In this document: positions 38,570 through 61,571 of the stretch, piece by piece
Position numbering within the stretch: the stretch's first letter is position 1
Layout: each line of letters starts with the position of its first letter
Assembly: GCF_044647545.1 (NCBI RefSeq)
Contig: NZ_CP172818.1
DNA from: Escherichia coli
GTDB taxonomy: Bacteria > Pseudomonadota > Gammaproteobacteria > Enterobacterales > Enterobacteriaceae
Length of the DNA: 64,000 nt
Direction: 5' to 3' (one strand)
Made by a program: the position numbers and the translations under genes
Notes under the pieces: generated by a model
Told to the model about the DNA's origin: nothing
Database searches by the model: none
What the model saw: only the letters and a program-made list of their open reading frames with translations

Positions 38570-38673
38570 GGTAAAACCGACTTAAAAGGAAAATCACAGG
38601 CGCGATGCTACTATGATTTTCCTGAGGAGAACAGAGGAGATACAGCGCCAGCCCCGAAGGACTGGCAGTCTGG

Positions 38674-39213: not shown

Positions 39214-39242
39214 TTTACGATTCCGTAATCAAATGCTTAAGG

Positions 39243-39986
39243 TTATTGGCGAATCAACATATACAGGCGGAACAGATAGATGAGCAGTACGGCTGAAATC
39301 AGGTTGCTCAAGGTGTTCGCCAGTACGGCACCAATTTCCGGGGTTAATGCGGCAAAAGAAGAGGCAAAAAGCAGCAACAGTGTTTTTGCCAGCAACCAGC
39401 TCAGTACTGCGGGTGCCACCAGACGCATATTCGCCCAAGTCAGCCGCATACTGCTACGCATCGAGGCAAAAACGCCCATTTTGTCCTGTACCAACATCAC
39501 CGGTGCCAGGGCCAGTAAAATGGCCATGATAATTCCCGGAACGACCACCAGCATGATGCCAATCTGTACTAAAAGGGTAGTCAGAAAAATCAGAATAAAT
39601 AACTTTGGCAATATCGGCGCACTGGCACCAATAGCTCGCAGCGCACTGACTCTCTGACCCGCAGACACCAGCTGGATAATTAATATTACGCCTCCGGCGA
39701 GAATGGCGTTACCGATTAATCCTGAAAAAGTGGACGCCGCTGAAGCCTGCAGCAAAATTTGTTGCTGTTCCGGTGACATATTCTGAACCAGGTCGAACAA
39801 GCCACTACTGCCGCTAACGGGCACGCCGTCATTGAGCTGCGCAAGCTGTGCATCACTGGGTGAGAAAACATGCCCTAACACCACTGTGATAAACGCACAT
39901 AGCAACGATACCAACAGAATGGTCATAAATTGATTGCGGAAGAAATTTCCGGTGTCACGGTATACGGACTGCGCCGTGATAGACAT
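39243..39986 (-). CDS. yciC: Inner-membrane protein YciC (247 aa)
   Basis: 247-aa [41 protein letters not shown]... Confidence 0.9.
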
Positions 39987-40342
39987 GCACTCTCCTTGAG
40001 TTTTATGCAGGTGTTAATTAGCGGGCAATTGTACCCTGGTTAAGCCTCGGGTGGCAGCATCAGGTCTTGTATGGAAAAGCATATCTTTGTAAAGCGGAGG
40101 TAATTGCTGGCCTTCAGACGTGGGCAAATCGCGGCAAGTGGCGATCGAGTTAATATTTGCGTAGCGAAAATATTTAAAAATTGATTTGAATCACATTAAC
40201 CAGGATTCTTAATGCAACTTCTAAATTAATCCAGATCAATAAATGGTGAATTATCATATGTAATGTGATCTATGTAGGATCATTTGTTACTCCAATGTAG
40301 GTATATTCGTCACGTTTTTATAACCATAACGACGGAGCGGAT

Positions 40343-40981
40343 ATGAAAAAGTTAACAGTGGCGGCTTTGGCAGTAACAACTCTTCTCTCTGGCAGTGCCT
40401 TTGCGCATGAAGCAGGCGAATTTTTTATGCGTGCAGGTTCTGCAACCGTACGTCCAACAGAAGGTGCTGGTGGTACGTTAGGAAGTCTGGGTGGATTCAG
40501 CGTGACCAATAACACGCAACTGGGCCTGACGTTTACTTATATGGCGACCGATAACATTGGTGTGGAATTGCTGGCAGCGACGCCGTTCCGCCATAAAATC
40601 GGCACCCGGGCGACCGGCGATATTGCAACCGTTCATCATCTGCCGCCAACACTGATGGCGCAGTGGTATTTTGGTGATGCCAGCAGCAAATTCCGTCCTT
40701 ACGTTGGGGCAGGTATTAACTACACCACCTTCTTTGATAATGGATTTAACGATCATGGCAAAGAGGCGGGGCTTTCCGATCTCAGTCTGAAAGATTCCTG
40801 GGGAGCTGCCGGGCAGGTGGGGGTTGATTATCTGATTAACCGTGACTGGTTGGTTAACATGTCAGTGTGGTACATGGATATCGATACCACCGCCAATTAT
40901 AAACTGGGCGGTGCACAGCAACACGATAGCGTACGCCTCGATCCGTGGGTGTTTATGTTCTCAGCAGGATATCGTTTTTAA
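40343..40981 (+). CDS. ompW: Outer-membrane protein OmpW (212 aa)
   Basis: 212-aa ORF MKKLTVAALAVTTLLSGSAFAHEAGEFFMRAGSATVRPTEG... with signal peptide and C-terminal aromatic residue. Confidence 0.95.
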   Translation: MKKLTVAALAVTTLLSGSAFAHEAGEFFMRAGSATVRPTEGAGGTLGSLGGFSVTNNTQLGLTFTYMATDNIGVELLAATPFRHKIGTRATGDIATVHHLPPTLMAQWYFGDASSKFRPYVGAGINYTTFFDNGFNDHGKEAGLSDLSLKDSWGAAGQVGVDYLINRDWLVNMSVWYMDIDTTANYKLGGAQQHDSVRLDPWVFMFSAGYRF

Positions 40982-40995
40982 TTCCGCACAAAAAC

Positions 40996-41016
40996 GACCC
41001 CGTAATATACGGGGTC
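40996..41016 (-). terminator. Hairpin terminator downstream of yciE (end of the yciGFE operon), shared with ompW
   Basis: gaccccgtatattacggggtc (minus sense) followed by gtttttgtg; lies between the convergent ompW and yciE stops. Confidence 0.6.
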
Positions 41017-41040
41017 AATAAGGACATGGTATAAAGGGTA

Positions 41041-41547
41041 TTATTTCTTCGCTTCTACGCCATCAGTTTCAGAGCGAATTAAAAATTTCTCAGTTGTTTG
41101 CGGAATATGCTGAATCAGCCAGTCGGCCATTTGCTTTTCCTCATTTAAAATCGCTTCGATGGTTGGAATTGAAGCTGTATCACCGGCATTTTTTGCTGCT
41201 GCTAAGAGTGAGGTGTAACAGGCGATTTCAAATTGCTCGAAGACATATCCGCTAATAGAGCCTTTGACTATTTCATCAGAAGGGAATATACCACCGATTG
41301 ACTGCCCAAGCGCAGCCATTTTACTCATGGAATCTTTAATGACTGAACGTGAAATGTCATTACGATCAAGAATAGTTTCCAGTTGAACAATCGGTTTTTG
41401 GTTTCAATAAGATGTTGTTCAATACGAGCGCGTAGTTCAGGATAATTATCTATACGGCTGGCCATGGATTAAAGCATAGATTCGGCTTGCTTTTCCATTG
41501 CGTGGGCGTCACGTAACCAGTCATGATAATGTTCAATACGATTCATG
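41041..41547 (-). pseudogene. yciE: yciE (ferritin-like DUF892 stress protein) disrupted by a premature TAA and a 1-bp frameshift
   Basis: From the ATG at 41545-41547 the minus strand reads MNRIEHYHDWLRDAHAMEKQAESML then TAA (plus 41469-41471); the same frame continues SMASRIDNYPELRARIEQHLIETKN and then shifts by -1 near plus 41391-41394 into the 95-aa C-terminal ORF 41041-41328 (MSKMAALGQS...VEAKK). Repairing both changes gives exactly 168 aa, the expected YciE length. Confidence 0.8.
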
Positions 41548-41591
41548 AAAATGTCCTCTTTATAAAATGACTAAAAGTTAAAGTTCATATT

Positions 41592-42092
41592 TCAGGCTTT
41601 ATTTTCGGCTTTCTTATTTACGTTATTAAGGGCCAGATCAGTTAGTTTGATGTCGGTGGCCTTTTCTTCTTCAAGAGTTTCTTTCAGAAGCTTAGCTGCT
41701 TTACGGTAACCTAATTGTTCAGCCAGCGTCGCTAATGTCCCGTAACTGGCAATCTCATAATGCTCGACTTTCTGTGCTGCGGCAATCAGTGCGGCATCAC
41801 GCACTTCGTTTTTCTCGGTACTTTCGATGACCTCATTAGCTTCTTCAATAAGACCTTCCATTGCCACACATTTCATGCGCTTAATTTTCAGATTCGATTC
41901 TGATTCCACAACTTGATCAATACGTTCAATCTGTCCATGTGTTTCCTCGAGGTGCGCATGAAAAGCCTGACTTAATTTTTCGTTTGATGTTGCTCTAGCG
42001 AGTTTTGCCAGTGCACGTGTTAATTGTTTTTCTGCACTGTAGGTGTCTGAAAGCAGGTGAATAAATACATCTTCAATGGTCTTCATATTCAT
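41592..42092 (-). CDS. yciF: Ferritin-like stress protein YciF (166 aa)
   Basis: ORF 41592-42140; product MNMKTIEDVFIHLLSDTYSAEKQLTRALAKLARATSNEK... from the ATG at 42092; paralog of YciE. Confidence 0.9.
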   Translation of the reverse strand: MNMKTIEDVFIHLLSDTYSAEKQLTRALAKLARATSNEKLSQAFHAHLEETHGQIERIDQVVESESNLKIKRMKCVAMEGLIEEANEVIESTEKNEVRDAALIAAAQKVEHYEIASYGTLATLAEQLGYRKAAKLLKETLEEEKATDIKLTDLALNNVNKKAENKA

Positions 42093-42178
42093 ATTTTTCT
42101 CCAGTGAAATCACTGCGAGCCATACGGCCCGCAGATGCAATTATCTTTATCAGCTGATATTAATAATGAACGGTGAAT

Positions 42179-42358
42179 CAGGATTTTCCTGATTTATTAC
42201 CACCGCTTTGTTGACCGCCTTTTTTACCCGCTTCAGATGCGCGTTGCGGATCATTTTTAAAATTACCGCCGCTATGCTGACCGCCTTTACGGCCTGCGTC
42301 GGATGCCTTCTCACGGTCTTCGGCGAAATTTCCTGAACCACCACGATGTTCGGCCATG
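42179..42358 (-). CDS. yciG: KGG-repeat stress protein YciG (59 aa)
   Basis: Manual translation from the ATG at plus 42356-42358: MAEHRGGSGNFAEDREKASDAGRKGGQHSGGNFKNDPQRASEAGKKGGQQSGGNKSGKS. The supplied ORF 42150-42344 is in a different frame. Confidence 0.85.
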
Positions 42359-42714
42359 TTATTTCTCCCGTTGCGTTGCGTTGCGTTGCATTGTTTGATT
42401 AATATGAGTGTTGTGTGTCGACACTCATTAAAATTAGTCGCAAATGAGTATTAGTCAAATTAAGCGTAACGAGAAAAAAGAGGGAAAATATATTTTGAGG
42501 AACATTCTGGATATATTAACAATAGCCTGAGGAATAAGTGACTTAGAGAAAATTATTGATTTTACTGGTGTTATGTTGCGGGATTAATTTGTTTGATTAT
42601 ATTACTGTTGGGCGGAAAAATGACGTAAGTTGACGTTCGACAGGGGTAAACGAAACGGTAGAAAGATAAATATTAAATGAATTTAGGATTTTTCCGGCTT
42701 CGTTAAAGAAAGTT

Positions 42715-42741
42715 AAAATGCCGCCAGCGGAACTGGCGGCT
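42715..42741 (-). terminator. trp operon terminator (trp t)
   Basis: Minus sense AGCCGCCAGTTCCGCTGGCGGCATTTT directly after the trpA stop; matches the classical trp t hairpin. Confidence 0.85.
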
Positions 42742-42747
42742 GTGGGA

Positions 42748-43554
42748 TTAACTGCGCGTCGCCGCTTTCATCGGTTGTACAAAAGCTTTCAGTGCCGCCA
42801 GCATTTTCTCTGGCTCATTAATATGTTGCTCGATGATTTTAACGATGGCCGAACCAGAAATCGCGCCCGCAGCTCCTGCATCAATCGCTGCTTTTACCTG
42901 ATCCGGGGCGGAAATACCAAATCCCTGCAATGGAGGCGCAGCATTGTATTCTTTCAGCTTCGTGACCAGATGATTGAGGGGTAACGCGGCGCGGTTTTCT
43001 GCGCCGGTCACGCCCGCACGTGACAATAAATAGGTGTATCCACGACCGTAGGAGGCTATCTGGCGCAGCAAATCATCGTCGGCATTCGGCGGGCAAATAA
43101 AGATAGGTGCGACATTATGACGCAACGCGGCCTGGCGGAAGGGCGCGGACTCTTCCACGGGCACATCGGCAACCAGCACCGAATCGACGCCGACTTTCTC
43201 GCACTCGGCATAAAACTCATCAATGCCTTTGTTAAACACCAGGTTGGCATACATCAAAAGGCCGATGGGAATGGTCGGGTGCTTCTGGCGAATGAGTGCC
43301 AGCATCTCAAAGCACTGCGCCGGGGTTACTCCCGCCGCAAAAGCACGCAGTGTGGCGTTTTGAATCGTCGGGCCATCCGCCAGTGGGTCGGAGAAGGGGA
43401 TGCCTAACTCCAGCGCGTCAGCACCGGCTTCAATTAGCGTATCGATAATTCTCAACGACTGCTCAATGCCCGGATCACCGAGGGTGACGAAAGGAACGAA
43501 TGCGCCTTCTTTGCGCTCCTTCAACTGGGCAAACAGAGATTCGTAGCGTTCCAT
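42748..43554 (-). CDS. trpA: Tryptophan synthase alpha subunit TrpA (268 aa)
   Basis: 268-aa [65 protein letters not shown]... Confidence 0.97.
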
Positions 43555-44747
43555 CAGATTTCCCCTCGTGCTTTCAAAATATCGTGAACGGTGAAGATGT
43601 CTTTATCGCCGCGACCGGAAAGGTTAACCACCAGTAGCTGCTCTTTTTCCGGATTTTCGCGCATCATTTTCAGCGCATGGGCCAGGGCGTGGGAGGATTC
43701 CAGCGCCGGGATGATCCCTTCATGCAGGCAAAGCGTTTTGAAGGCTTCCAGTGCTTCATCATCGGTAATTGACACGTAATCAGCGCGTCCAGTGCTGTTA
43801 AGATACGCGTGTTGCGGGCCGACAGACGGGAAATCCAGTCCGGCAGAAATGGAGTAAGATTCTTCAATCTGCCCGTCTTCGGTTTGCATCATCGGCGCTT
43901 TCATACCGAAATAGATGCCCACGCGACCATGTTTTAACGGTGCGCCGTGCTCGCCGGTTTCGATACCGTGACCGCCAGGCTCCACACCAATCAGGCCGAC
44001 GTTGGTTTCGTTGATGAAATCTGCAAACATGCCGATGGCATTCGAACCGCCGCCAACACAGGCGATAACCGCATCCGGCAGGCGACCTTCTCTTTCCAGA
44101 ATCTGTGCTTTGGTTTCTTCGCCAATCACTCGCTGAAACTCACGGACAATGGTCGGATAAGGATGTGGGCCAGCTGCGGTGCCCAGCATATAGTGCGCGG
44201 TTTCATAACTGCCGGACCAGTCGCGCAGCGCCTCGTTACAGGCATCTTTCAGCGTCGCGGAACCGCTATGTACCGGGATCACTTCCGCACCCATTAAGCG
44301 CATACGAAAAACGTTTGGCGACTGGCGTTCAACGTCTTTGGCACCCATATAAATACGGCATTTCAGGCCGAGCAGGGCGCTGGCAAGGGCCGACGCCACG
44401 CCATGCTGACCGGCTCCGGTTTCGGCGATGATTTCCGTTTTACCCATCCGCTTCGCCAGCAACGCCTGTCCCAGCACCTGGTTAGTTTTATGCGCGCCGC
44501 CGTGCAGCAAATCTTCGCGCTTCAGATACAGCGTGGTGTTCGTCCCGGCTGTAATGTTCTGGCATTTGGTCAGCGCGGTTGGACGCCCGGCATAGTTTTT
44601 CAGCAGGTCGTTGAACTGAGCCTGAAATTCAGGATCTTTTTGCGCACTGACAAAAGCTTCTTCCAGCTGGCGCAGAGCAGGCATCAGGATTTGTGGCACG
44701 TACATGCCGCCAAACTCACCAAAATAGGGGTTAAGTAATGTTGTCAT
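43554..44747 (-). CDS. trpB: Tryptophan synthase beta subunit TrpB (397 aa)
   Basis: 397-aa [35 protein letters not shown]...; 1-nt stop/start overlap with trpA. Confidence 0.97.
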
Positions 44748-44758
44748 TGTTCCTTTCC

Positions 44759-46117
44759 TTAATATGCGCGCAGCGTCTGGAAAACCGAGGCCAAAAGACG
44801 TGCGTCTTTGATGCCCGGTTGCGACTCTACAGCAGAATTAAAATCAAGTCCGGCGCAGCCGGTTTGTGCCGCTTCCACGCAGTTATCTGCGCCTAAGCCC
44901 CCCGCCAGCAGAACGTTGCCAAGCGATTGACCGTTTAACAGTGACCAGTCGAAACGTTGTCCGCTCCCGCCCTGACCGTTGTCGAATACATATTTATCGA
45001 TGTGCTGAAAATCGCGCGCGGGAAGAGTTTCACCGACACTTAAAGCCTTCCAGATGGCGACGTGTGCTGGCAGAGCCTCACGCAGAGTGTCGATATACAG
45101 CTGATCTTCATTACCATGCAGTTGCACTGCCGCCAGCGATAACACCTTAGCTTTGTCCACCACATCGGCAATATCGTGATTGCGGAACACGCCAACATAC
45201 TGCAACGGTGCCGCAGCCATCACTTCCTGCGCCTGTTCAACGTTGACGCAACGCGGTGATGTCGCAACAAAAATCAACCCACCGTAAATCGCGCCCGCGT
45301 CATAAGCTGCTTTAGCATCTTGCCCACGCGTCAGGCCACACACTTTATTCTCACCCAGCAACACCCGGCGCACGGCGGCGTTCAAATCGTCATGGGCCAT
45401 CAACGCCGAACCAATCAGAAAACCGTTAGCGAAGTGGCTTAACTCGCGCACCTGGGCGTAAGTATTGATGCCGGATTCGCTGATTACCGTCACGTTGTGC
45501 CCAAGCTTCGGCGCAAGCTCGCGGGTACGGTTGAGATCAATCGACAAATCACGCAGATCGCGGTTGTTGATGCCAACGACCTTTGCCCCCAATGCAATGG
45601 CGCGCTCCAGTTCCTCTTCATTACTGACTTCAGTCAGCACACCCATCTCCAGACTGTGGGCGACAGCAGCAAGCTGGCGATATTGTTCGTCATCCAGTAC
45701 TGAAAGCATTAATAAACAGGCATCAGCCTGGTAATAGCGCGCCAGATAGATCTGGTAAGGATCGATAATGAAGTCTTTACATAAAATCGGCTGCGGGGCG
45801 ATTTGGCTGACGATAGGGAGGAAATCAAAGCTCCCCTGAAAATATTTCTCATCAGTCAGCACTGAAATTGCCGAAGCGTAATGTTTATAAATGGCAGCAA
45901 TGCGTGCCGGATCGAAATCATCACGGATCACGCCTTTTGACGGCGACGCTTTTTTGCACTCCAGAATAAACGCCGTGCGTGCACCCTGTAGCGCATCATA
46001 AAAATGTCGCGTGCTCGGCTGAATCTCATTCTGAAAACTGGCCAGCGGTTGCTGCTGTTTGCGGGCTTCTACCCAAATCGCCTTGTCTGCGACGATTTTC
46101 GCTAAAACGGTTTGCAT
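44759..46117 (-). CDS. trpC: Bifunctional indole-3-glycerol-phosphate synthase / phosphoribosylanthranilate isomerase TrpC
   Basis: 452-aa [32 protein letters not shown]... from the ATG at 46117. Confidence 0.95.
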
Positions 46118-46120
46118 TAT

Positions 46121-47716
46121 TTACCCTCGTGCCGCCAGTGCGGTGACTCTGTCGTAAGCGGAACCACTGCGCAGTACCTCAAGAACGGTTTGCGCATTGG
46201 CTTGCAGATCTTCATGGCCATGCAGGCGCATTAACATGGCGACATTCGCCGCGACGGCTGCTTCGTGAGCGGCGTCGCCTTTACCTTGTAACAAGCGTGT
46301 TAAAATGTCACGGTTTTCTTCCGGTGTTCCGCCTGCCAGTTGCTCCTGGTGGTAGGGTGTCAGGCCAAAATCTTCAGCGGTCAATTGATAGCTCTTAATT
46401 TCGCCGTCATGCAGTTCGGCAACGATTGTCGGCGCGTGTAATGAAACTTCATCCATCCCGCCGCTGTGCACCACCGCCGCGCGTTGATACCCCAGCACGC
46501 GCAAGGTTTCGGCAATCGGCAGCACCAGTTCCGGACTATAAACACCAATTAGCGCCAGCGGCGGATGCGCCGGGTTAATCAATGGCCCCAGCACATTGAA
46601 CAGAGTGCGGGTTTTCAGTTGCTGGCGAACCGGCATCGCATGGCGGAATCCGGTGTGATATTTCGGCGCAAAGAGGAAACAGACGCCTAACTCATCCAGC
46701 GCCTGGCGCGATTTATCGGCGTTCATATCAAGATTAATACCGAACGCCGCCAGCAGATCCGACGAGCCGGATTTACTGGAGACGCTACGGTTGCCGTGTT
46801 TCGCCACTTTCAGCCCACAGGCCGCGGCGACAAACGCACTGGCGGTAGAAATATTGATGCTGTTACTGCCGTCACCGCCGGTGCCGACGATATCGGCAAA
46901 CAGATAATCAGGGCGTGGGAACGGCGCGGCGTTTTCCAGTAGCGCGGTTGCTGCCCCGGCGATCTCGTTCGGGTGCTCACCGCGAATTTTCATGCTCACC
47001 AGCGCCGCCGCCAGTTGTTCCGGCTTCAGCTCGCCACGTACCACCGCTGAAAACAGCTGGTGGCTTTCTTGTTGGCTAAGCGTCTGTGCCTGATACAGTT
47101 TTTCCAGAATCGGTTGCAGCGTGTTGGTTGGCTCTAGTTTCTGCTGCGCCCAGGCCAGCGTTTGTTCCAGCAGGCGAGCGCCCTGGGTAGTAAGAATGGA
47201 TTCCGGATGGAACTGGAATCCACAAACGCGATCCGCATCATGACGCACCGCCATCACCATGCCATTAAAATGGGCGTTGATGGTTAAACCGGCCGGAATA
47301 TTACTGCCAACCAGCGAGTGATAACGCGCCACTGGCAGCGGGTTTGTTAATCCGGCAAACATCGCCTGACCGTCATGTTCAATGCTCGACGCTTTACCGT
47401 GAAGAATTTCGCCCGCCTGACCGACATAGCCCCCGTAAGCTTCGACAATCGCCTGATGACCGAGGCAAATGCCAATAATTGGCAGCTTGCCGCGCAGGCG
47501 GGTGAGGAGTTCCGGCATACAACCGGCTTCGCTCGGCACACCGGGGCCAGGAGAGAGCATCAGCACCGGATTGCTCATCGTCGCCAGGCGTTCAATTAAG
47601 GTCTGCGCCGGAATATGGTTGCGGTAAATCACCACGTTATGCCCATTGCTGCGCAACTGATCTGCCAGGTTGTAAGTAAAAGAATCGATATTATCGAGTA
47701 GCAGAATGTCAGCCAT
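46121..47716 (-). CDS. trpD: Anthranilate synthase component II / anthranilate phosphoribosyltransferase TrpD (531 aa)
   Basis: 531-aa [37 protein letters not shown]... Confidence 0.97.
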
Positions 47717-49278
47717 CAGAAAGTCTCCTGTGCATGATGCGCGGTGGCAATAGCGCGCAGTACAGCGCGGGCTTTATTACGGGTTTCGTCGGCTTCCGAC
47801 TGCGGAACAGAATCAAGGACTACGCCAGCACCGGCTTGCACGGTGGCGATACCGTTTTCCACGAGCGCCGAGCGGATCACAATGCAGGTGTCGAGATCGC
47901 CATTTGCGGTGAAATAACCTACCGCGCCGCCGTAGCTGCCGCGGCGACGACCTTCTGCTTCGGCAATTAACTGCATAGCGCGTACTTTCGGCGCACCGCT
48001 TAACGTCCCCATATTCATACAGGCGCGGTAAGCGTGCAGGGCGTCGAGATCGTGGCGCAGCTCACCGACAACGCGGGAGACCAGGTGCATCACGTAAGAG
48101 TAACGGTCTACTTTGGTGAGATCGGCGACGTAGCGGCTGCCGGGTGTGCAAATGCGTGCCAGGTCATTACGGGCGAGATCCACCAGCATCAGATGTTCAG
48201 AAAGCTCTTTATGATCGGTACGCATCTCCAGTTCGATGCGGCTGTCGAGGTCTCTGTCCAGTGAACCATCGGCACGACGACCGCGTGGACGTGTTCCGGC
48301 AATCGGGTAAATCTCAATCTGGCGGCTGGTGGCGTCATACTTGAGCGAACTTTCCGGCGACGCGCCAAACAGGGTGAAATCATTATCCTGCATAAAAAAC
48401 ATGTACGGGCTGGGATTACTCTTTTTCAGCACGTAATAGGCCGCCAGCGGTGACGGGCAGGGCAGAGAGAAACGGCGAGATGGCACCACCTGGAAAATTT
48501 CTCCGGCGCGAATCGCTTTTTGCAACGAACGCACTACGCCACCGAACTCTTCATCGCTCTGATTACATTCACAAAGCATATGCGGCACGGAAACTACCGG
48601 CAGCGGTGGCGCGGTTTCGGTCAGTTGCTGGCGAAGTTCGTTCAGGCGAGCAGTGAGACGTTGTTTTTCTTCTTCATTTGGAGTAAACAGGCTGGCCTGA
48701 ATGCGGGTGCTTTTCTTCTGATGGTCAATCACCATCAGCGTTTCAGCGAGATAAAAACAGAAATCAGGGCAGTTATTTTCCGCTGACAATTGCGGTAAAT
48801 CTTCAAATCCCGCCACAATGTCATAAGAGAACAGGCCGCCGAAGAACATTGCTTCTCGTTCTTCCTTCGGTACATTCAACAGATTCTGCAATATGCGGAA
48901 AGCGTCAAAAACCGAAAGGGAGCATAAGCGGGCGTCTTCATCCAGCAATGGACTGACAGGGGGGAAGCGCAGCACGCGGCAGTTTGGTGATTGTTCATTT
49001 TCCACACCCGCAGGCAGGGCGTTATCCAGTAATGCCAGCAGAGCTTCGCCATTGCCGGAAAGTGCCTGAATAGTGACAGTGTCACCTAATGCTGTAATGC
49101 GCAGCGCACTGTCCACTAGCAATAGACTTTTTAAATCATCTTTGCTGTCGATATCTGCGGATTCCAGCAGCAGCGTTGCCGGACGATCCCCACACAACTG
49201 GTGAAAAAGCGCAGTCGGGTTGTCGCGATAAGCGCCTTTGCAAGTTAGCAGTTCGAGAGTCGGTTTTTGTGTTTGCAT
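47716..49278 (-). CDS. trpE: Anthranilate synthase component I TrpE (520 aa)
   Basis: 520-aa [56 protein letters not shown]...; 1-nt overlap with trpD. Confidence 0.97.
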
Positions 49279-49298
49279 TGTTATTCTCTAATTTTGTT

Positions 49299-49330
49299 CA
49301 AAAAAAAGCCCGCTCATTAGGCGGGCTGGG
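49299..49330 (-). terminator. trp attenuator (leader terminator 3:4 hairpin)
   Basis: Minus sense AGCCCGCCTAATGAGCGGGCTTTTTTTT located between trpL and trpE. Confidence 0.9.
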
Positions 49331-49369
49331 TATCTGATTGCTTTACGCATGGTGAATACACTGCCCGTT

Positions 49370-49414
49370 TCAGGAAGTGCGCCACCAACCTTTCAGTACG
49401 AAAATTGCTTTCAT
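49370..49414 (-). CDS. trpL: trp leader peptide (14 aa, tandem Trp codons)
   Basis: ATGAAAGCAATTTTCGTACTGAAAGGTTGGTGGCGCACTTCCTGA = [14 protein letters not shown]. Confidence 0.95.
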
Positions 49415-49441
49415 TGTCGATACCCTTTTTACGTGAACTTG

Positions 49442-49480
49442 CGTACTAGTTAACTAGTTCGGTGATTAATTGTCAACAGC
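49442..49480 (-). promoter_or_regulatory. trp promoter with TrpR operator
   Basis: Minus sense TGTTGACAATTAATCA(C)CGAACTAGTTAACTAGTACGCAAG: -35 TTGACA (plus 49471-49476) and the palindromic operator CGAACTAGTTAACTAGTACG (plus 49442-49461). Confidence 0.9.
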
Positions 49481-49551
49481 TCATTTCAGAATATTTGCCA
49501 GAACCGTTATGATGTCGGCGCAAAAAACATTATCCAGAACGGGAGTGCGCC

Positions 49552-50433
49552 TTGAGCGACACGAATTACGCAGTGATTTACGACCTGCACAGCCATACCA
49601 CAGCTTCCGATGGCTGCCTGACGCCAGAAGCATTGGTGCACCGTGCAGTCGAGATGCGCGTCGGCACCCTGGCGATCACCGACCATGACACCACAGCTGC
49701 AATTGCACCAGCAAGAGAGGAAATTTCACGTTCGGGACTGGCGCTGAATCTTATTCCTGGTGTGGAAATTTCCACGGTCTGGGAAAATCATGAAATTCAT
49801 ATTGTCGGGCTGAATATTGATATTACTCATCCGCTAATGTGTGAGTTCCTCGCGCAGCAGACAGAACGGCGCAATCAGCGGGCGCAGCTGATTGCCGAAA
49901 GACTTGAAAAAGCGCAAATACCTGGGGCACTGGAAGGCGCGCAACGACTGGCGCAGGGCGGTGCGGTGACGCGCGGTCATTTTGCTCGTTTCCTTGTGGA
50001 GTGCGGAAAAGCCAGTTCAATGGCGGATGTCTTTAAAAAGTATCTGGCGCGCGGGAAAACCGGATACGTTCCGCCACAGTGGTGTACAATAGAACAAGCT
50101 ATTGATGTCATTCATCATTCTGGCGGTAAGGCGGTGCTAGCTCATCCTGGGCGGTACAATCTTAGTGCTAAATGGCTGAAAAGATTGGTTGCGCATTTTG
50201 CCGAACACCACGGCGACGCGATGGAAGTCGCGCAGTGCCAGCAATCGCCCAATGAACGCACCCAGCTGGCGACACTTGCGCGTCAGCATCATTTATGGGC
50301 ATCACAAGGATCTGATTTTCATCAGCCATGCCCGTGGATCGAACTGGGTCGTAAACTCTGGCTGCCCGCAGGCGTTGAAGGCGTCTGGCAGCTATGGGAA
50401 CAGCCGCAGAACACCACAGAGAGGGAATTATGA
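49552..50433 (+). CDS. trpH: PHP-domain 5'-3' exoribonuclease TrpH/YciV (293 aa)
   Basis: 293-aa ORF MSDTNYAVIYDLHSHTTASDGCLTPEALVHRAVEMRVGTLAITDHDT... (PHP motif). Confidence 0.9.
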   Translation: MSDTNYAVIYDLHSHTTASDGCLTPEALVHRAVEMRVGTLAITDHDTTAAIAPAREEISRSGLALNLIPGVEISTVWENHEIHIVGLNIDITHPLMCEFLAQQTERRNQRAQLIAERLEKAQIPGALEGAQRLAQGGAVTRGHFARFLVECGKASSMADVFKKYLARGKTGYVPPQWCTIEQAIDVIHHSGGKAVLAHPGRYNLSAKWLKRLVAHFAEHHGDAMEVAQCQQSPNERTQLATLARQHHLWASQGSDFHQPCPWIELGRKLWLPAGVEGVWQLWEQPQNTTEREL

Positions 50434-51050
50434 GCCAGTTTTTTTATATTCATCCTGATAACCCGCAGCAACGTCTGATCAACCAGGCGGTGGAGATCGT
50501 GCGTAAAGGCGGGGTGATTGTTTATCCAACTGATTCCGGCTATGCGCTCGGCTGTAAAATTGAAGATAAAAACGCGATGGAGCGTATTTGTCGTATTCGC
50601 CAGCTGCCGGACGGTCACAACTTTACCCTGATGTGTCGCGATCTTTCTGAACTCTCGACCTATTCATTTGTCGATAACGTTGCGTTTCGTTTAATGAAAA
50701 ACAACACGCCGGGCAACTATACCTTCATCCTGAAGGGGACGAAGGAAGTGCCACGCCGTCTGTTGCAGGAAAAACGCAAAACCATCGGTATGCGTGTGCC
50801 GTCTAACCCGATTGCGCAGGCGTTGCTTGAAGCACTGGGCGAACCGATGCTTTCCACTTCGCTAATGCTGCCAGGCAGCGAATTTACCGAATCCGATCCC
50901 GAAGAAATTAAAGACCGTCTGGAAAAACAGGTAGATTTGATTATTCACGGCGGCTATCTCGGGCAGAAACCAACAACGGTTATTGATCTTACTGATGATA
51001 CGCCGGTCGTGGTGCGTGAAGGCGTAGGTGATGTGAAGCCTTTCTTATAA
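50430..51050 (+). CDS. yciO: Sua5/YciO/YrdC-family protein YciO (206 aa)
   Basis: ORF 50394-51050; product MSQFFYIHPDNPQQRLINQAVEIVRKGGVIVYPTDSGYALGC... from the ATG at 50430, overlapping the trpH stop. Confidence 0.9.
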   Translation: MSQFFYIHPDNPQQRLINQAVEIVRKGGVIVYPTDSGYALGCKIEDKNAMERICRIRQLPDGHNFTLMCRDLSELSTYSFVDNVAFRLMKNNTPGNYTFILKGTKEVPRRLLQEKRKTIGMRVPSNPIAQALLEALGEPMLSTSLMLPGSEFTESDPEEIKDRLEKQVDLIIHGGYLGQKPTTVIDLTDDTPVVVREGVGDVKPFL

Positions 51051-51077
51051 CAAATTGCGTTCCACGGATGGAAGACT

Positions 51078-52967
51078 ATGGCAGGGAAGTTTCGCTGCAT
51101 TTTGCTGTTGATAGCAGGGCTTTTTTTCTCTTCGTTGAGTTATGCGAAAAACACGGAGATCCCTTCTTATGAAGAAGGGATCTCGCTCTTTGATGTTGAA
51201 GCCACTCTGCAACCGGATGGGGTGCTCGACATCAAAGAAAATATTCATTTTCAGGCGCGAAATCAGCAGATTAAGCACGGATTTTATCGTGATTTACCAC
51301 GACTCTGGATGCAGCCTGATGGGGACGCTGCACTGCTGAACTATCATATTGTTGGCGTCACCCGTGATGGTATTCCTGAACCCTGGCATCTTGACTGGCA
51401 TATCGGGTTAATGAGTATTGTCGTGGGCGATAAACAACGTTTCTTGCCTCAAGGCGACTATCATTATCAAATTCATTATCAGGTTAAAAATGCTTTCCTG
51501 CGTGAAGGGGATTCTGATCTGCTAATCTGGAACGTGACCGGTAACCACTGGCCGTTTGAAATTTATAAAACCCTATTTTCACTCAAGTTGCCTGATATTG
51601 CGGGTAATCCATTTAGCGAAATCGATCTCTTTACTGGAGAAGAGGGCGACACATATCGAAATGGCCGCATCCTTGAGGACGGAAGAATTGAATCCCGCGA
51701 TCCGTTTTATCGTGAAGATTTCACGGTACTCTACCGCTGGCCTCACGCTTTACTTAGCAATGCCCCGGCTCCACAAACGACGAATATTTTCAGCCATCTT
51801 CTTTTACCCTCCACGTCATCGTTGTTAATTTGGTTTCCTTGTCTATTCCTGGTTTGTGGATGGTTATATCTCTGGAAGCGCAGGCCGCAATTTACGCCGG
51901 TAGATGTGATTGAAACCGATGTCATTCCGCAAGATTACACACCCGGCATGTTACGTCTCGATGCGAAGCTGGTTTACGACGATAAAGGTTTTTGTGCCGA
52001 TATCGTAAATCTGATTGTGAAAGGAAAAATTCATCTGGAAGATCAGTATGATAAGAACCAGCAAATCCTGATTCGTGTTAATGAAGGCGCGACCAGAAAT
52101 AATGCGGTATTACTGCCCGCAGAGCAGTTATTACTGGAAGCGTTATTTCGTAAAGGCGATAAGGTCGTTCTTACGGGTAGACGCAACAGCGTCTTACGCA
52201 AGGCATTTTTACGGATGCAGAAATTTTATCTGCCGCGTAAAAAGTCTTCGTTTTACCGACCTGATGCGTTTTTGCAATGGGGCGGAATGGCAATATTGGC
52301 GGTCATTCTCTACGGTAACCTGAGTCCCGTAGGCTGGGCAGGAATGAGTCTGGTTGGCGATATGTTTATTATGATCTGCTGGCTTCTTCCTTTCTTATTT
52401 TGTTCCCTTGAGCTTTTGTTTGCCCGCGATGATGACAAGCCTTGCGTTAATCGTGTAATCATCACTTTGTTTTTACCGCTGATTTGTTCAGGCGTGGCCT
52501 TTTACTCTCTCTATATCAATGTCGGAGATGTATTCTTTTACTGGTATATGCCAGCGGGTTATTTTAGCGCTGTTTTCCTGACCGGCTATCTCACTGGCAT
52601 GGGGTATATTTTTCTGCCAAAGTTTACCCAAACTGGGCAGCAAAGTTATGCCCACGGTGAAGCTATCGTTAACTATCTTGCGCGTAAAGAGGCAGCAACA
52701 CACAGTGGGCGTCGGCGGAAAGGGGAAACACGGAAACTGGATTACGCGTTGCTAGGTTGGGCAGTCTCGGCAAACCTTGGCAGAGAATGGGCAGCACGTA
52801 TCACGCCGTCACTCACAGCGGCTGTTCGCGCCCCGGAAATTGCCCGTAGTGGCGTTTTATTCTCATTACAGACGCACCTGAGTTGCGGGGCCTATACCAG
52901 TTTGTTGGGGCGGAGCTATTCCGGTGGTGGTTCTGGCGCTGGTGGCGGAGGCGGTAGTGGCTGGTAA
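51078..52967 (+). CDS. yciQ: Membrane protein YciQ (DUF2207 family, 629 aa as read here)
   Basis: 629-aa ORF with an N-terminal signal peptide, internal hydrophobic segments and a Gly-rich C-terminal tail (GGGSGAGGGGGSGW). Confidence 0.85.
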   Translation: MAGKFRCILLLIAGLFFSSLSYAKNTEIPSYEEGISLFDVEATLQPDGVLDIKENIHFQARNQQIKHGFYRDLPRLWMQPDGDAALLNYHIVGVTRDGIPEPWHLDWHIGLMSIVVGDKQRFLPQGDYHYQIHYQVKNAFLREGDSDLLIWNVTGNHWPFEIYKTLFSLKLPDIAGNPFSEIDLFTGEEGDTYRNGRILEDGRIESRDPFYREDFTVLYRWPHALLSNAPAPQTTNIFSHLLLPSTSSLLIWFPCLFLVCGWLYLWKRRPQFTPVDVIETDVIPQDYTPGMLRLDAKLVYDDKGFCADIVNLIVKGKIHLEDQYDKNQQILIRVNEGATRNNAVLLPAEQLLLEALFRKGDKVVLTGRRNSVLRKAFLRMQKFYLPRKKSSFYRPDAFLQWGGMAILAVILYGNLSPVGWAGMSLVGDMFIMICWLLPFLFCSLELLFARDDDKPCVNRVIITLFLPLICSGVAFYSLYINVGDVFFYWYMPAGYFSAVFLTGYLTGMGYIFLPKFTQTGQQSYAHGEAIVNYLARKEAATHSGRRRKGETRKLDYALLGWAVSANLGREWAARITPSLTAAVRAPEIARSGVLFSLQTHLSCGAYTSLLGRSYSGGGSGAGGGGGSGW

Positions 52968-53177
52968 TCAAGCTGATATTAATCGAAACAAGCTTTAACC
53001 ATAAAGATAGTGTAGTATGTTGCGCCTCAAAGCCAGGCCGATAAACGTCGAGTCGTTTACTTAAGGCCTGAAGAGTTCAAACAGACTTTACTATCAGTGA
53101 GTCAGATGTAAGTTCTGACTCACTGTTGCACAAAAGCATATCAGACGCCTGGGAAGGCGACACCAAAAGGAAGCTCT

Positions 53178-54053
53178 ATGAGCGAAAAGCTACAGAAAGT
53201 GCTGGCGCGTGCCGGCCACGGCTCTCGCCGTGAAATCGAATCTATTATTGAAGCCGGTCGTGTGAGTGTTGATGGCAAAATTGCTAAACTCGGCGATCGC
53301 GTTGAAGTTACCCCTGGATTGAAAATCCGTATCGATGGTCACCTGATTTCGGTACGTGAGTCCGCTGAACAAATTTGTCGCGTTCTGGCCTATTACAAAC
53401 CGGAAGGTGAGTTGTGTACCCGTAACGATCCGGAAGGACGTCCAACGGTGTTTGACCGTCTGCCAAAACTGCGTGGCGCACGCTGGATTGCCGTGGGTCG
53501 CCTGGACGTTAACACCTGTGGTCTGCTGCTGTTCACCACCGATGGTGAACTGGCAAACCGTTTAATGCACCCAAGCCGTGAAGTTGAACGTGAATATGCC
53601 GTGCGTGTATTTGGTCAGGTTGACGACGCGAAACTGCGTGATTTGAGTCGTGGCGTGCAGTTGGAAGATGGTCCGGCAGCCTTTAAAACCATCAAGTTCA
53701 GCGGCGGCGAAGGGATCAACCAGTGGTACAACGTTACTCTGACCGAAGGCCGTAACCGTGAAGTTCGTCGTCTTTGGGAAGCGGTTGGTGTGCAGGTGAG
53801 CCGCCTGATCCGTGTTCGTTACGGTGATATCCCACTGCCAAAAGGTCTGCCACGCGGTGGCTGGACGGAGCTGGACCTCGCCCAGACTAACTATCTGCGC
53901 GAACTGGTGGAGCTACCGCCAGAAACCAGCTCTAAAGTCGCTGTAGAAAAAGACCGTCGTCGCATGAAGGCGAATCAGATTCGTCGTGCGGTGAAACGTC
54001 ACAGTCAGGTGAGCGGCGGTCGTCGTTCTGGCGGACGTAATAATAACGGTTAA
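53178..54053 (+). CDS. rluB: 23S rRNA pseudouridine(2605) synthase RluB (291 aa)
   Basis: 291-aa [45 protein letters not shown]... (S4 domain plus RsuA-type catalytic domain, Arg-rich tail). Confidence 0.95.
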
Positions 54054-54466
<413 letters not shown>

Positions 54467-54508
54467 TGCGGATAATGACATGGAATATCCGGCATTATAT
54501 TTACAGCA

Positions 54509-55099
54509 TTAATAATCAATCCCTATTTGCGCCTTAACACCGGCATCAAACGCATGTTTGATGGGGCGCAGCTCACTTACCGTATCCGCCAGTTCGAGTA
54601 TATCCCGATGACAACCACGACCCGTGATAATCACCGTTTGTTGATGTGGACGTTCATTTAACGCCTGCACCACTTCTTCCAGTGGCAAATAGTCATACGC
54701 CACCATATAAGTCAGCTCATCGAGCAAAACCATATCCAGTGAAGGATCGGCCAGCATTCGTTTGGCATGTTGCCAGACTTCACGGCAGGCCGCAGTATCA
54801 GATTCGCGATTTTGTGTATCCCAGGTAAAGCCCGTTGCCATCACCTGAAACTCAACGCCATGTGGCTCCAGTAGATTGCGCTCGCCATTAGGCCAGGTGC
54901 CTTTAATAAACTGCACGACGCCCACTTTTTTGCCATGGCCTACTGCACGAGTTGCCGTACCAAATGCCGCGGTGGTTTTGCCTTTTCCATTGCCGGTAAA
55001 GACGATGATAATACCGCGTTCATCCTGGGCCTGGGCCACACGAGCATCGACTTTTTCTTTCACTCGCTGCTGACGCTGTTGGTAGCGTTCATCACTCAT
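54509..55099 (-). CDS. btuR: Cob(I)yrinic acid a,c-diamide adenosyltransferase BtuR/CobA (196 aa)
   Basis: 196-aa ORF MSDERYQQRQQRVKEKVDARVAQAQDERGIIIVFTGNGKGKTTAAFG...; 4-bp overlap with yciK. Confidence 0.95.
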   Translation of the reverse strand: MSDERYQQRQQRVKEKVDARVAQAQDERGIIIVFTGNGKGKTTAAFGTATRAVGHGKKVGVVQFIKGTWPNGERNLLEPHGVEFQVMATGFTWDTQNRESDTAACREVWQHAKRMLADPSLDMVLLDELTYMVAYDYLPLEEVVQALNERPHQQTVIITGRGCHRDILELADTVSELRPIKHAFDAGVKAQIGIDY

Positions 55100-55854
55100 T
55101 GGGAAATTCCTGGTTTACGGCCCGGTTGGGCGTCAAAGGTCATGCCGGTTTTACGGCGGCTGTCATCGCCCATCAGCCAGAGGTAGAGCGGCATGATATC
55201 AGCGGGTGTTTTAAGTTTCTGTGGATCTTCGGTCGGGAAGGCGCTGGCACGCATTGCGGTGCGCGTACCGCCTGGGTTAATGCAGTTGACGCGCAGGCGC
55301 TGCTGATATTCATCGGCCAGTACCTGCATCATCCCTTCGGTGGCAAATTTCGACGCTGCATATGCGCCCCAGTTGGCTCGTCCCTGACGTCCAACGCTTG
55401 ATGAAGTAAAGACCAGTGAACCGGCGTCCGATTTGAGTAATAAAGGAAGCAGTGCCTGGGTGAGCATAAAGGTGGCATTAACGTTGACCTGCATGACGTC
55501 CTGCCAGACCTGCGGATTTTGTTCGCTCATTGGGCAAACATCGCCGAGCAATCCGGCATTATGCAAAACACCATCCAGACGCGGATAATTAACGGCAATG
55601 CGCTGTGCCAGTTGTTGGCAATCTTCGGACGTGCAGGTCAGCAAATCGAGAATAAACCACTGTGGCTGACGCCCAGTTTCTTCGTTTATGTGGCTGGCTA
55701 CCTGACGTAATTTTTCTTCATTACGGCCCAACAGAATCACTGTCGCACCATAGCGTGCATACGTCATCGCGGCTTCACGACCAATACCATCACTGGCTCC
55801 CGTCACCAGGATAATGCGATCATTGAGTAAATCTTGTTTTGGCTGGTAATGCAT
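55096..55854 (-). CDS. yciK: Short-chain dehydrogenase/reductase YciK (252 aa)
   Basis: 252-aa ORF MHYQPKQDLLNDRIILVTGASDGIGREAAMTYARYGATVILLGR... (Rossmann TGASDGIG motif). Confidence 0.9.
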   Translation of the reverse strand: MHYQPKQDLLNDRIILVTGASDGIGREAAMTYARYGATVILLGRNEEKLRQVASHINEETGRQPQWFILDLLTCTSEDCQQLAQRIAVNYPRLDGVLHNAGLLGDVCPMSEQNPQVWQDVMQVNVNATFMLTQALLPLLLKSDAGSLVFTSSSVGRQGRANWGAYAASKFATEGMMQVLADEYQQRLRVNCINPGGTRTAMRASAFPTEDPQKLKTPADIMPLYLWLMGDDSRRKTGMTFDAQPGRKPGISQ

Positions 55855-56073
55855 GGCTACTCCTCAACGACGTTGTCTGTCGCGCTGCCAGTGTTCTTTA
55901 TGACTTTGGGGCTTTATGCCTGAAACAGAAGGGCATTTCAATCAGCCTGGGGCGATAACACCGCAAAATGGATACTTTGTCATACTTTCGCTGCAATAAC
56001 ATCTCTGCGAGACGGCTTAACATGCCTGTTGTAAACTGTGAGCCAAAGCGTTGTTTAACCAAGGTGGGGACTC

Positions 56074-57123
56074 GTGGAATTGTTGTCTGAATATGGTTTG
56101 TTTTTGGCGAAAATCGTTACCGTTGTGCTAGCGATTGCGGCGATTGCCGCCATTATTGTCAATGTTGCTCAACGTAATAAACGCCAGCGTGGCGAGTTAC
56201 GGGTCAACAATCTCAGCGAACAGTATAAGGAGATGAAAGAAGAACTGGCCGCGGCGCTGATGGACACTCATCAGCAAAAACAGTGGCACAAAGCGCAGAA
56301 GAAAAAGCACAAGCAAGAAGCGAAAGCAGCAAAAGCGAAAGCTAAACTGGGCGAGGTGGCAACTGACAGTAAACCTCGCGTCTGGGTGCTGGATTTTAAA
56401 GGCAGCATGGACGCCCATGAAGTGAACTCGCTACGTGAAGAGATAACGGCGGTACTCGCAGCATTCAAACCGCAGGATCAGGTTGTGCTCCGTCTGGAAA
56501 GCCCTGGTGGCATGGTGCATGGTTACGGGTTGGCGGCTTCGCAGCTGCAGCGTCTGCGTGATAAAAACATTCCTTTAACTGTTACGGTAGACAAAGTCGC
56601 TGCCAGCGGCGGTTACATGATGGCCTGTGTGGCGGACAAAATTGTTTCCGCACCGTTTGCTATTGTGGGTTCCATTGGCGTGGTGGCACAAATGCCCAAC
56701 TTTAACCGCTTCCTGAAAAGCAAAGATATTGATATCGAACTGCACACCGCCGGGCAGTATAAGCGCACGCTGACCTTGCTGGGTGAAAACACCGAAGAAG
56801 GGCGGGAGAAATTCCGCGAAGAGCTGAACGAAACGCATCAGTTATTTAAAGATTTTGTGAAGCGTATGCGTCCGTCTCTGGATATTGAACAGGTGGCAAC
56901 GGGTGAACACTGGTACGGACAACAGGCGGTAGAGAAAGGCCTGGTTGATGAAATCAACACCAGTGATGAAGTTATTCTTAGCCTGATGGAAGGCCGTGAA
57001 GTGGTCAATGTACGCTATATGCAGCGTAAACGACTCATTGACCGATTCACCGGCAGCGCGGCAGAGAGCGCCGATCGATTGTTGCTACGCTGGTGGCAGC
57101 GGGGTCAAAAGCCATTGATGTAA
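56074..57123 (+). CDS. sohB: Inner-membrane peptidase SohB (S49 family, 349 aa)
   Basis: 349-aa ORF MELLSEYGLFLAKIVTVVLAIAAIAAIIVNVAQRNKRQRGEL... with a Lys-rich linker. Confidence 0.95.
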   Translation: MELLSEYGLFLAKIVTVVLAIAAIAAIIVNVAQRNKRQRGELRVNNLSEQYKEMKEELAAALMDTHQQKQWHKAQKKKHKQEAKAAKAKAKLGEVATDSKPRVWVLDFKGSMDAHEVNSLREEITAVLAAFKPQDQVVLRLESPGGMVHGYGLAASQLQRLRDKNIPLTVTVDKVAASGGYMMACVADKIVSAPFAIVGSIGVVAQMPNFNRFLKSKDIDIELHTAGQYKRTLTLLGENTEEGREKFREELNETHQLFKDFVKRMRPSLDIEQVATGEHWYGQQAVEKGLVDEINTSDEVILSLMEGREVVNVRYMQRKRLIDRFTGSAAESADRLLLRWWQRGQKPLM

Positions 57124-57128
57124 AAGAC

Positions 57129-57156
57129 AAACGCGAGGGTAAGACCTCGCGTTTTG
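57129..57156 (+). terminator. Rho-independent terminator after sohB
   Basis: aaacgcgagg-gtaag-acctcgcgtttt hairpin with T run, 6 bp after the sohB stop. Confidence 0.75.
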
Positions 57157-57158
57157 CT

Positions 57159-57410
57159 TTAATCAACCAGGTGATATTTTTCTGAAAGCACATGGGCCAG
57201 GTGTTTGAACATATTAAACACCGCGGTGCTTTTGGCTGTTGGCAATCCTTGTTCATCTAAAAAGTAGTCGCCGGTAAATACCAGCACGCCATTACGCTGC
57301 GTGACGCCGGTGGCTTCAATCCCTGCGAGCGTATCCTCATGCTCACGAATGATTTTGTTGGCCTCTTTCAACAGCGTCTCGCGGTCGATGGGTTGTGTCT
57401 CTTTGTTCAT
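57159..57410 (-). CDS. yciN: Small protein YciN (83 aa)
   Basis: 83-aa [86 protein letters not shown]. Confidence 0.9.
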
Positions 57411-57789
57411 TATTTACTCCTTAAACAAGGACATTAGTCTACGCCAGGCATGGCTTGCAGACAAATATACCACGCTGGTGGCAAGAGCGCCTTACTGGCA
57501 ACTTTGGATTTTGCATGCTAATAAAGTTGCGTATCGGATTTTATCAGGTACAGTGTGACGCTTTCGTCAATCTGGCAATAGATTTGCTTGACATTCGACC
57601 AAAATTCCGTCGTGCTATAGCGCCTGTAGGCCAAGACCTGTTAACTCAGTCACCTGAATTTTCGTGAACAGAGTCACGACAAGGGGTTGATATCCGCAGA
57701 GAGCGAGTCCATATCGGTAACTCGTTGCCAGTGGAAGGTTTATCAACGTGCGACGCATTCCTGGAAGAATCAAATTAGGTAAGGTGAAT

Positions 57790-60387
57790 ATGGGTAAAGC
57801 TCTTGTCATCGTTGAGTCCCCGGCAAAAGCCAAAACGATCAACAAGTATCTGGGTAGTGACTACGTGGTGAAATCCAGCGTCGGTCACATCCGCGATTTG
57901 CCGACCAGTGGCTCAGCTGCCAAAAAGAGTGCCGACTCTACCTCCACCAAGACGGCTAAAAAGCCTAAAAAGGATGAACGTGGCGCTCTCGTCAACCGTA
58001 TGGGGGTTGACCCGTGGCACAATTGGGAGGCGCACTATGAAGTGTTGCCTGGTAAAGAGAAGGTCGTCTCTGAACTGAAACAACTGGCTGAAAAAGCCGA
58101 CCACATCTATCTCGCAACCGACCTTGACCGCGAAGGGGAAGCCATTGCATGGCACCTGCGGGAAGTGATTGGTGGTGATGATGCGCGCTATAGCCGAGTG
58201 GTGTTTAACGAAATTACTAAAAACGCGATCCGCCAGGCATTTAACAAACCGGGTGAGCTGAATATTGATCGTGTTAATGCCCAGCAGGCGCGTCGCTTTA
58301 TGGACCGCGTGGTAGGGTATATGGTTTCGCCGCTGCTGTGGAAAAAGATCGCTCGTGGTCTGTCTGCCGGTCGTGTGCAGTCGGTGGCGGTTCGCCTGGT
58401 GGTCGAGCGTGAGCGTGAAATTAAAGCGTTCGTGCCGGAAGAGTTCTGGGAAGTCGATGCCAGCACGACCACGCCATCTGGTGAAGCGTTGGCGTTACAG
58501 GTGACTCATCAGAACGACAAACCGTTCCGTCCGGTCAACAAAGAACAAACTCAGGCTGCGGTAAGTCTGCTGGAAAAAGCGCGCTACAGCGTGCTGGAAC
58601 GTGAAGACAAACCGACAACCAGTAAACCTGGCGCTCCTTTTATTACCTCTACGCTGCAACAAGCTGCCAGCACCCGTCTTGGATTTGGCGTGAAAAAAAC
58701 CATGATGATGGCGCAGCGTTTGTATGAAGCAGGCTATATCACTTACATGCGTACCGACTCCACTAACCTGAGTCAGGACGCGGTAAATATGGTTCGCGGT
58801 TATATCAGCGATAATTTTGGTAAGAAATATCTGCCGGAAAGTCCGAATCAGTACGCCAGCAAAGAAAACTCACAGGAAGCGCACGAAGCGATTCGTCCTT
58901 CTGACGTCAATGTGATGGCGGAATCGCTGAAGGATATGGAAGCAGATGCGCAAAAACTGTACCAGTTAATCTGGCGTCAGTTCGTTGCCTGCCAGATGAC
59001 CCCAGCGAAATATGACTCCACGACGCTGACCGTTGGTGCGGGCGATTTCCGCCTGAAAGCACGCGGTCGTATTTTGCGCTTTGATGGCTGGACAAAAGTG
59101 ATGCCTGCACTGCGTAAAGGCGATGAAGATCGTATCTTACCGGCAGTCGATAAAGGCGATGCTCTGACGCTCGTTGAACTGACACCAGCCCAGCACTTTA
59201 CCAAGCCTCCAGCCCGTTTCAGTGAAGCATCGCTGGTCAAAGAGCTGGAAAAACGCGGTATCGGTCGTCCTTCTACCTATGCGTCGATCATTTCGACCAT
59301 TCAGGATCGTGGCTATGTGCGAGTAGAAAATCGTCGTTTCTATGCGGAAAAAATGGGCGAAATCGTCACCGATCGCCTGGAAGAGAATTTCCGCGAGTTA
59401 ATGAACTACGACTTTACTGCGCAGATGGAAAACAGCCTCGACCAGGTGGCCAATCACGAAGCAGAGTGGAAAGCTGTACTGGATCACTTCTTCTCGGATT
59501 TCACTCAGCAGTTAGATAAAGCTGAAAAAGATCCGGAAGAGGGTGGTATGCGCCCGAACCAGATGGTTCTGACCAGCATTGACTGCCCGACTTGTGGTCG
59601 CAAAATGGGGATTCGCACAGCGAGCACCGGGGTATTCCTTGGCTGTTCTGGTTATGCGCTGCCGCCGAAAGAGCGTTGCAAAACCACCATTAACCTGGTG
59701 CCGGAAAACGAAGTGCTGAACGTGCTGGAAGGCGAAGACGCTGAAACCAACGCGCTGCGCGCAAAACGTCGTTGCCCGAAATGCGGCACGGCGATGGACA
59801 GCTATCTCATCGATCCGAAACGTAAGTTGCATGTCTGTGGTAATAACCCAACCTGCGACGGTTACGAGATCGAAGAGGGCGAATTCCGCATTAAAGGTTA
59901 TGACGGCCCGATCGTTGAGTGTGAAAAATGTGGCTCTGAAATGCACCTGAAAATGGGCCGTTTCGGTAAATACATGGCCTGCACCAACGAAGAGTGTAAA
60001 AACACACGTAAGATTTTACGTAACGGCGAAGTGGCACCACCGAAAGAAGATCCGGTGCCATTACCTGAGCTGCCGTGCGAAAAATCAGATGCTTATTTCG
60101 TGCTGCGTGACGGTGCTGCCGGTGTGTTCCTGGCGGCCAATACCTTCCCGAAATCGCGTGAAACACGTGCGCCACTGGTGGAAGAGCTTTATCGCTTCCG
60201 CGACCGTCTGCCGGAAAAACTGCGTTATCTGGCCGATGCGCCACAGCAGGATCCGGAAGGTAATAAGACCATGGTTCGCTTTAGCCGTAAAACCAAACAG
60301 CAATATGTCTCTTCGGAAAAAGACGGAAAGGCGACTGGCTGGTCAGCATTTTATGTTGATGGCAAATGGGTTGAAGGGAAAAAATAA
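57790..60387 (+). CDS. topA: DNA topoisomerase I TopA (865 aa)
   Basis: ORF 57748-60387; product [38 protein letters not shown]... from the ATG at 57790; C-terminal zinc ribbons ([16 protein letters not shown]). Confidence 0.97.
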
Positions 60388-60418
60388 CCTTTAATTTTGT
60401 CAGGTTTTTATAAACAAA

Positions 60419-60572: not shown

Positions 60573-61571
<999 letters not shown>

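Follow-up and report, generated by a model that had tools for sequence, protein, structure and literature searches.

The tryptophan operon control region of an Escherichia coli chromosomal segment, with a single base difference from K-12 at position -22

The minus-strand region at 49300-49476 of the window (by which we mean the whole stretch of 64,000 nucleotides of Escherichia coli DNA analysed here) is, with a probability that we put at about 97%, the native and functional region that controls the trpEDCBA operon of E. coli. The promoter, the operator, the trpL leader gene and the attenuator were all read directly from the sequence; every element is present in the arrangement of the reference and is identical to it, and the leader RNA is able to fold into each of the alternative hairpins. 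No sequence feature contradicting a native trp control region was found. The function of the region would follow from its identity with the experimentally characterised region of K-12, and what is described here is an already known system in its ordinary form. The sequence-only reading of this DNA had bracketed exactly this region (49299-49480), leaving the strand unstated, and had described the -35 hexamer TTGACA, the operator, the 14-codon leader with UGG-UGG, the attenuator hairpin and the U8 tract as present without change. All of them were found, and each is unchanged relative to K-12; “without change” holds for every named element but not for the region as a whole, in which one base at 49462 differs from K-12 (T>C at -22). 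The coordinates of all features are collected in Table 1.

Table 1 Features of the trp control region and operon in the window. Positions are those of the 64,000-nt stretch; leader nucleotides (nt) are counted from the predicted transcription start.
Feature	Position in window	Strand	Details and evidence
-35 hexamer TTGACA	49471-49476	-	read directly; same as K-12 in alignment
Promoter spacer		-	17 bp between TTGACA and TTAACT
-10 hexamer TTAACT	49448-49453	-	read directly; K-12 alignment; pattern search
TrpR operator, 20-bp near-perfect palindrome CGAACTAGTTAACTAGTACG, made up of CGAACTAGTT and AACTAGTACG	49442-49461		-21 to -2; identical to K-12
Predicted transcription start +1, first A of AAGUUCACG	49440	-	from sequence identity with K-12
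trpL leader peptide ORF, 14 codons + stop	49370-49414	-	ATG at 49414, UGA ends at 49370; translated
Tandem Trp codons UGG-UGG	49382-49387	-	nt 54-59; overlap segment 1
RNA segments 1+2, 1:2 pause/anti-antiterminator hairpin	49349-49387	-	nt 54-92; sub-segment fold -17.5 kcal/mol
Antiterminator 2:3	49322-49367	-	nt 74-119; fold -15.6 kcal/mol
Attenuator, terminator hairpin 3:4 AGCCCGCCTAATGAGCGGGCT	49307-49327	-	terminator scan; fold -14.0 kcal/mol; Rfam alignment
U8 tract	49300-49307	-	eight T ending at 49300
trpE	47716-49278	-	ATG at 49278; 520-aa ORF
trpD	46121-47716	-	531-aa ORF
trpC(F)	44759-46117	-	452-aa ORF
trpB	43554-44747	-	397-aa ORF
trpA	42748-43554	-	268-aa ORF

Pattern searches showed that the promoter and the operator are both unique in the window. 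The combination TTGACA-N17-TTAACT occurred a single time, against 0.04 occurrences expected by chance, and a search for the 18-bp operator core GNACTAGTTAACTAGTNC, in which up to 3 mismatches were allowed, returned one site in 64 kb, with 0 mismatches, against 0.07 expected by chance. The operator palindrome overlaps the -10 hexamer, and two CTAG motifs are present. A generic sigma-70 promoter scan of the window left the trp promoter out of its list for one reason only: the scan accepts just those -10 hexamers whose second base is A, and TTAACT has a T there; the K-12 trp promoter fails this position-2 rule equally. The trpR gene lies outside the 64-kb window and is unlinked to the trp operon. 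On the plus strand, a promoter-like TTCAGA-17-TATGAT was observed at 49485-49513; it stands back-to-back with the -35 hexamer of trp and precedes the divergently oriented ORF of rnm (trpH/yciV; 49552-50433).

Counted from +1 at 49440, the leader is 162 nt long and reaches the trpE AUG at nt 163. The positions of the trpL AUG (nt 27-29), of UGG-UGG (54-59), of the trpL UGA (69-71) and of the trpE AUG match the textbook numbering. A Shine-Dalgarno-like AAGGG is located between the leader start and trpL, whose ORF reads ATG AAA GCA ATT TTC GTA CTG AAA GGT TGG TGG CGC ACT TCC TGA, and RefSeq genomes carry the trpL annotation (WP_001700591.1) on the identical stretch. Downstream, the T8 tract ends the attenuator 21 nt upstream of the trpE ATG. 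All five structural genes of trpEDCBA (42748-49278, minus strand) are full-length ORFs, with lengths equal to those in the annotation of E. coli strain 1428 and with a sequence 100% identical to that strain.

The Rfam Trp_leader model (RF00513) matched the stretch from 49393 to 49300 over model positions 1-100 of 100, with 93.1 bits (E 1.1e-18) against a gathering score of 41 bits. Membership in RF00513 is indicated by this covariance score together with the tandem-Trp leader ORF, the intrinsic terminator and the mutually exclusive antiterminator, all of which were found. The his, leu, thr, pheA and ilv leaders follow the same logic, in which a short leader ORF enriched in the relevant codons is combined with alternative antiterminator and terminator hairpins. 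These leaders, however, use other regulatory codons, and the best Rfam match here is Trp_leader.

RNA folding, which the sequence-only reading had named as a check, showed that the 1:2, 2:3 and 3:4 hairpins all form, with the energies given in Table 1. The 1:2 hairpin is also contained in the minimum free energy structure and in the Rfam consensus structure. The 2:3 hairpin is formed between nt 74-78 (CGGGC) and nt 115-119 (GCCCG) and thereby sequesters the terminator's 5′ arm (nt 114-121); it has bases in common with both 1:2 and 3:4 and is thus a mutually exclusive antiterminator. The 3:4 stem consists of 7 pairs, 6 of them G-C. The 141-nt leader as a whole has a minimum free energy of -46.9 kcal/mol, which makes it more stable than any of 200 shuffled sequences (z = -3.69). 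When a ribosome footprint was masked at nt 27-72 and the RNA was extended only to nt 125, 2:3 became the minimum-energy structure; when the full 141-nt RNA was folded at equilibrium with the same footprint masked, no switch to the antiterminator was seen and 3:4 persisted. This preference for 3:4 at equilibrium is no defect of the sequence, since the choice between the hairpins is known to be made kinetically, during transcription. The preference holds equally for K-12, because the two leader sequences are identical.

The mechanism of ribosome-mediated trp attenuation in E. coli has been summarised in PMC13178558, and the 100% identity of the leader with that of K-12 suggests that tryptophan-dependent termination would also operate here. 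At initiation, tryptophan-loaded TrpR bound to the operator that overlaps the -10 hexamer would occlude RNA polymerase from the sigma-70 promoter. When charged tRNA-Trp is plentiful, the ribosome would reach the stop codon and cover segment 2, so that 3:4 and U8 would cause termination at about nt 140. A shortage of charged tRNA-Trp would stall the ribosome on UGG-UGG, the 2:3 antiterminator would form, and transcription would read through into trpE. The attenuated trp leader has further been described as rnTrpL, an Hfq-dependent trans-acting sRNA that pairs with dnaA mRNA and affects sanA and mhpC (PMC12612679, review). The 140-nt terminated leader encoded here equals the K-12 RNA in sequence, and the reported targets are those of the K-12 RNA; such an activity would come on top of the role of this element in attenuation and would not give it another identity.

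To place the region against its reference, it was aligned with K-12 MG1655 (NC_000913.3). The K-12 trp system (RF00513; trpL b1265) shares with it both hexamers, the 17-bp spacing, the 20-bp palindrome and the distance to the trpE AUG, as well as the whole 162-nt leader with the TrpL peptide, the tandem Trp codons, the 1:2, 2:3 and 3:4 hairpins and U8. This alignment, which had been proposed as the check able to refute an intact leader, revealed no mismatch in the Trp codons or in the terminator stem. Across 49244-49560 exactly one substitution was found, a minus-strand C in place of T at 49462. This base corresponds to position -22 from the K-12 start and belongs to the spacer, directly 5′ of the palindrome, outside it and outside both hexamers. 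The neighbouring genes differ from K-12 by roughly 2-5%, with an average of 30 SNPs per kb, and a lone difference amid such diverged neighbours is the pattern expected of a regulatory region that is presumably under constraint.

We then surveyed natural E. coli genomes for the region and its variants. A 261-bp query (49270-49530) was 100% identical, -22C included, to at least 30 natural E. coli RefSeq chromosomes, among them those of strain 1428, ST648, ECONIH1, FDAARGOS_497 and relatives, and the features annotated under the match were “Trp leader region”, “trpL: trp operon leader peptide” and trpE. A match covering at least 80% of this query was present in 5421 of 5426 complete genomes. Alleles were counted with variant-centred 41-mers, each 28-base seed word being forced to include -22: the -22C allele was found in 88 of the 5426 complete genomes (~1.6%) and the K-12 41-mer in 4373, with other variants in the remaining ~960 genomes. 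Six of these ~960 were sampled, and eight diverse E. coli sequences were aligned overall. Among the sampled genomes, -28 T>C was carried by O157:H7 TT12B and strain 121, -24 C>T by two strains, +13 A>G by SCEC020007, and -16 T>C, within the left CTAG of the operator (GAACCAG), by strain 121 and CUWW06. Since -16 is a core TrpR contact position, strain 121 and CUWW06 might be partly derepressed. Between the ATG codons of trpL and trpE, all 8 of the 8 aligned sequences were the same. It appears from these alignments that the spacer and the left operator flank tolerate lineage SNPs, whereas the attenuator does not.

The -22C allele is thus a natural minority allele. The 88 genomes that carry it are close in number to the 85 with at least 99% identity over the surrounding 25 kb, which fits the view that -22C is a clonal-lineage marker, carried by the lineage of strain 1428, ST648 and ECONIH1. 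That -22C was planted or is an artefact was also considered and is ruled out by its presence in 88 complete genomes.

This one base is also what lends some plausibility to a reading in which the region is intact and yet not regulatorily equivalent to that of K-12, the T>C change at -22, which adjoins the palindrome and falls within the part of the operator where further TrpR dimers bind in tandem, altering TrpR occupancy or promoter strength in this lineage. Apart from this base the roughly 320 bp of regulatory DNA are invariant, a minority lineage is fixed for the C allele, and a 1987 source places the trpEDCBA operator among the operators that bind more than one TrpR. Against this, -22 lies in neither the 20-bp palindrome nor the -35 and -10 hexamers, and the natural SNPs in the same spacer stretch (-28 and -24), together with that at -16 inside the palindrome, suggest relaxed constraint; moreover, in an upstream tandem register, with its centre near -19.5 as reasoned from the half-site spacing, the consensus base at this position is G, a mismatch for T and C alike. 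In the literature searched, no measurement of how position -22 affects the binding of TrpR came up. We consider such a loss of equivalence unlikely. That -22C could tune trp repression in the lineage, by way of the upstream operator flank (tandem TrpR) or of a spacer-dependent promoter strength, is likewise given a low rating, because the base falls outside the palindrome and the hexamers and because nearby spacer positions vary as well. The substitution is most likely neutral, and the region is best read as an ordinary trp control region of its lineage.

The sequence-only reading had further treated the trp region as an internal control for the faithfulness of the window, in contrast to unexpected lesions in adjacent genes. 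Comparison with strain 1428 (NZ_CP023366.1) upheld the conclusion that the window is, for the most part, faithful native sequence: about 62.6 kb aligned at 99.97% or more (99.968-100%), with 99.968% identity over 1-21962, 99.974% over 22915-54074 and 100% over 54509-64000. It is this whole-window comparison that carries the argument, a single 180-bp region being a weak control. Strain 1428 shows no difference in the trp region, and the window departs from it at 21963-22914 and 54075-54508. Over 36515-54063, which spans the trp operon, yciG, yciF, yciE, ompW and rnm up to rluB, zero differences were found.

The supposed contrast with yciE did not hold. In the window this gene (41041-41546, minus strand) carries a 1-bp deletion relative to K-12 at 41393, by which its ORF is split into pieces of 95 aa and 46 aa. 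Strain 1428 has the same lesion, annotated there by PGAP as a pseudogene (“frameshifted; internal stop”), and the strain 1428 lineage has this frameshift and the flanking 17.5 kb in common with the window. As a mark of non-native sequence the lesion is thus ruled out; by this comparison, the frameshift is a native pseudogene of the lineage. Just upstream of yciG, a 10-bp insertion relative to K-12 (42369-42378), consisting of two extra CGTTG units (CGTTGCGTTG), is likewise found in strain 1428.

Elsewhere in the window, several local features were recorded in passing. Relative to strain 1428, a 2-bp and a 1-bp deletion are found at 14948 and 15065, directly following the 3′ CCA ends of the two tandem tRNA-Tyr genes, both of which are intact. 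A 952-bp remnant of an IS4-family transposase lies between adhE and tdk (21963-22914); its best match among the 5426 genomes is only 98.6% (K-12-like strains), while its flanks are 99.97% identical to strain 1428, which at this site has an unrelated 1390-bp IS4 instead. In the cysB-acnA intergenic region, the Rfam enterobacterial sRNA STnc180 was matched on the plus strand at 62241-62444 with 204.9 bits, overlapping the site of ymiC, a small gene.

The one clearly anomalous stretch near the trp region is an A-rich tract between rluB and cobO, 4.6 kb away from it. It comprises about 400 bp (54075-54470) with 80% A and A runs of up to 48, and its junction extends up to 54515. In strain 1428, whose genome is the closest, this site is occupied by a 1544-bp island that has 36% G+C and bears two hypothetical genes; in K-12 and in strain 23AR0806 the corresponding interval measures just about 39 bp. 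At the right junction of the tract, 26 bp of the island interior are joined to the island-less allele through the common ATATCC, with three extra bases, so that two natural alleles are fused there into a chimera. A tract joining both flanks in this way was absent from all complete E. coli genomes searched. We regard the tract as probably artefactual or non-native.

The tract, its chimeric junction and the lack of any complete E. coli genome in which the flanks are joined over such a tract could also be taken to mean that the stretch as a whole does not come from a living strain and is a reconstructed or machine-altered window, in which intactness would be uninformative on function, but this is very improbable, as the trp region and the surrounding 17.5 kb are base-for-base identical to strain 1428, and at least 15 independent natural genomes matched a 25-kb query around trp with 100% identity, the A-rich tract excepted. 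Whatever the nature of the tract, its origin left the trp region untouched, and it is without effect on the trp control region.

The trp region is among the best-studied regulatory regions in biology, and its presence here is of little importance in itself. Its practical value is that of a calibration point, which sets the A-rich tract apart from its surroundings. The survey also yields a small catalogue of natural trp promoter and operator variants, at -28, -24, -22, -16 and +13. Taken with the ~17.5 kb around it, the identity of the trp region to a natural isolate indicates that the window is chromosomal sequence from a lineage of E. coli near strain 1428 and ST648.
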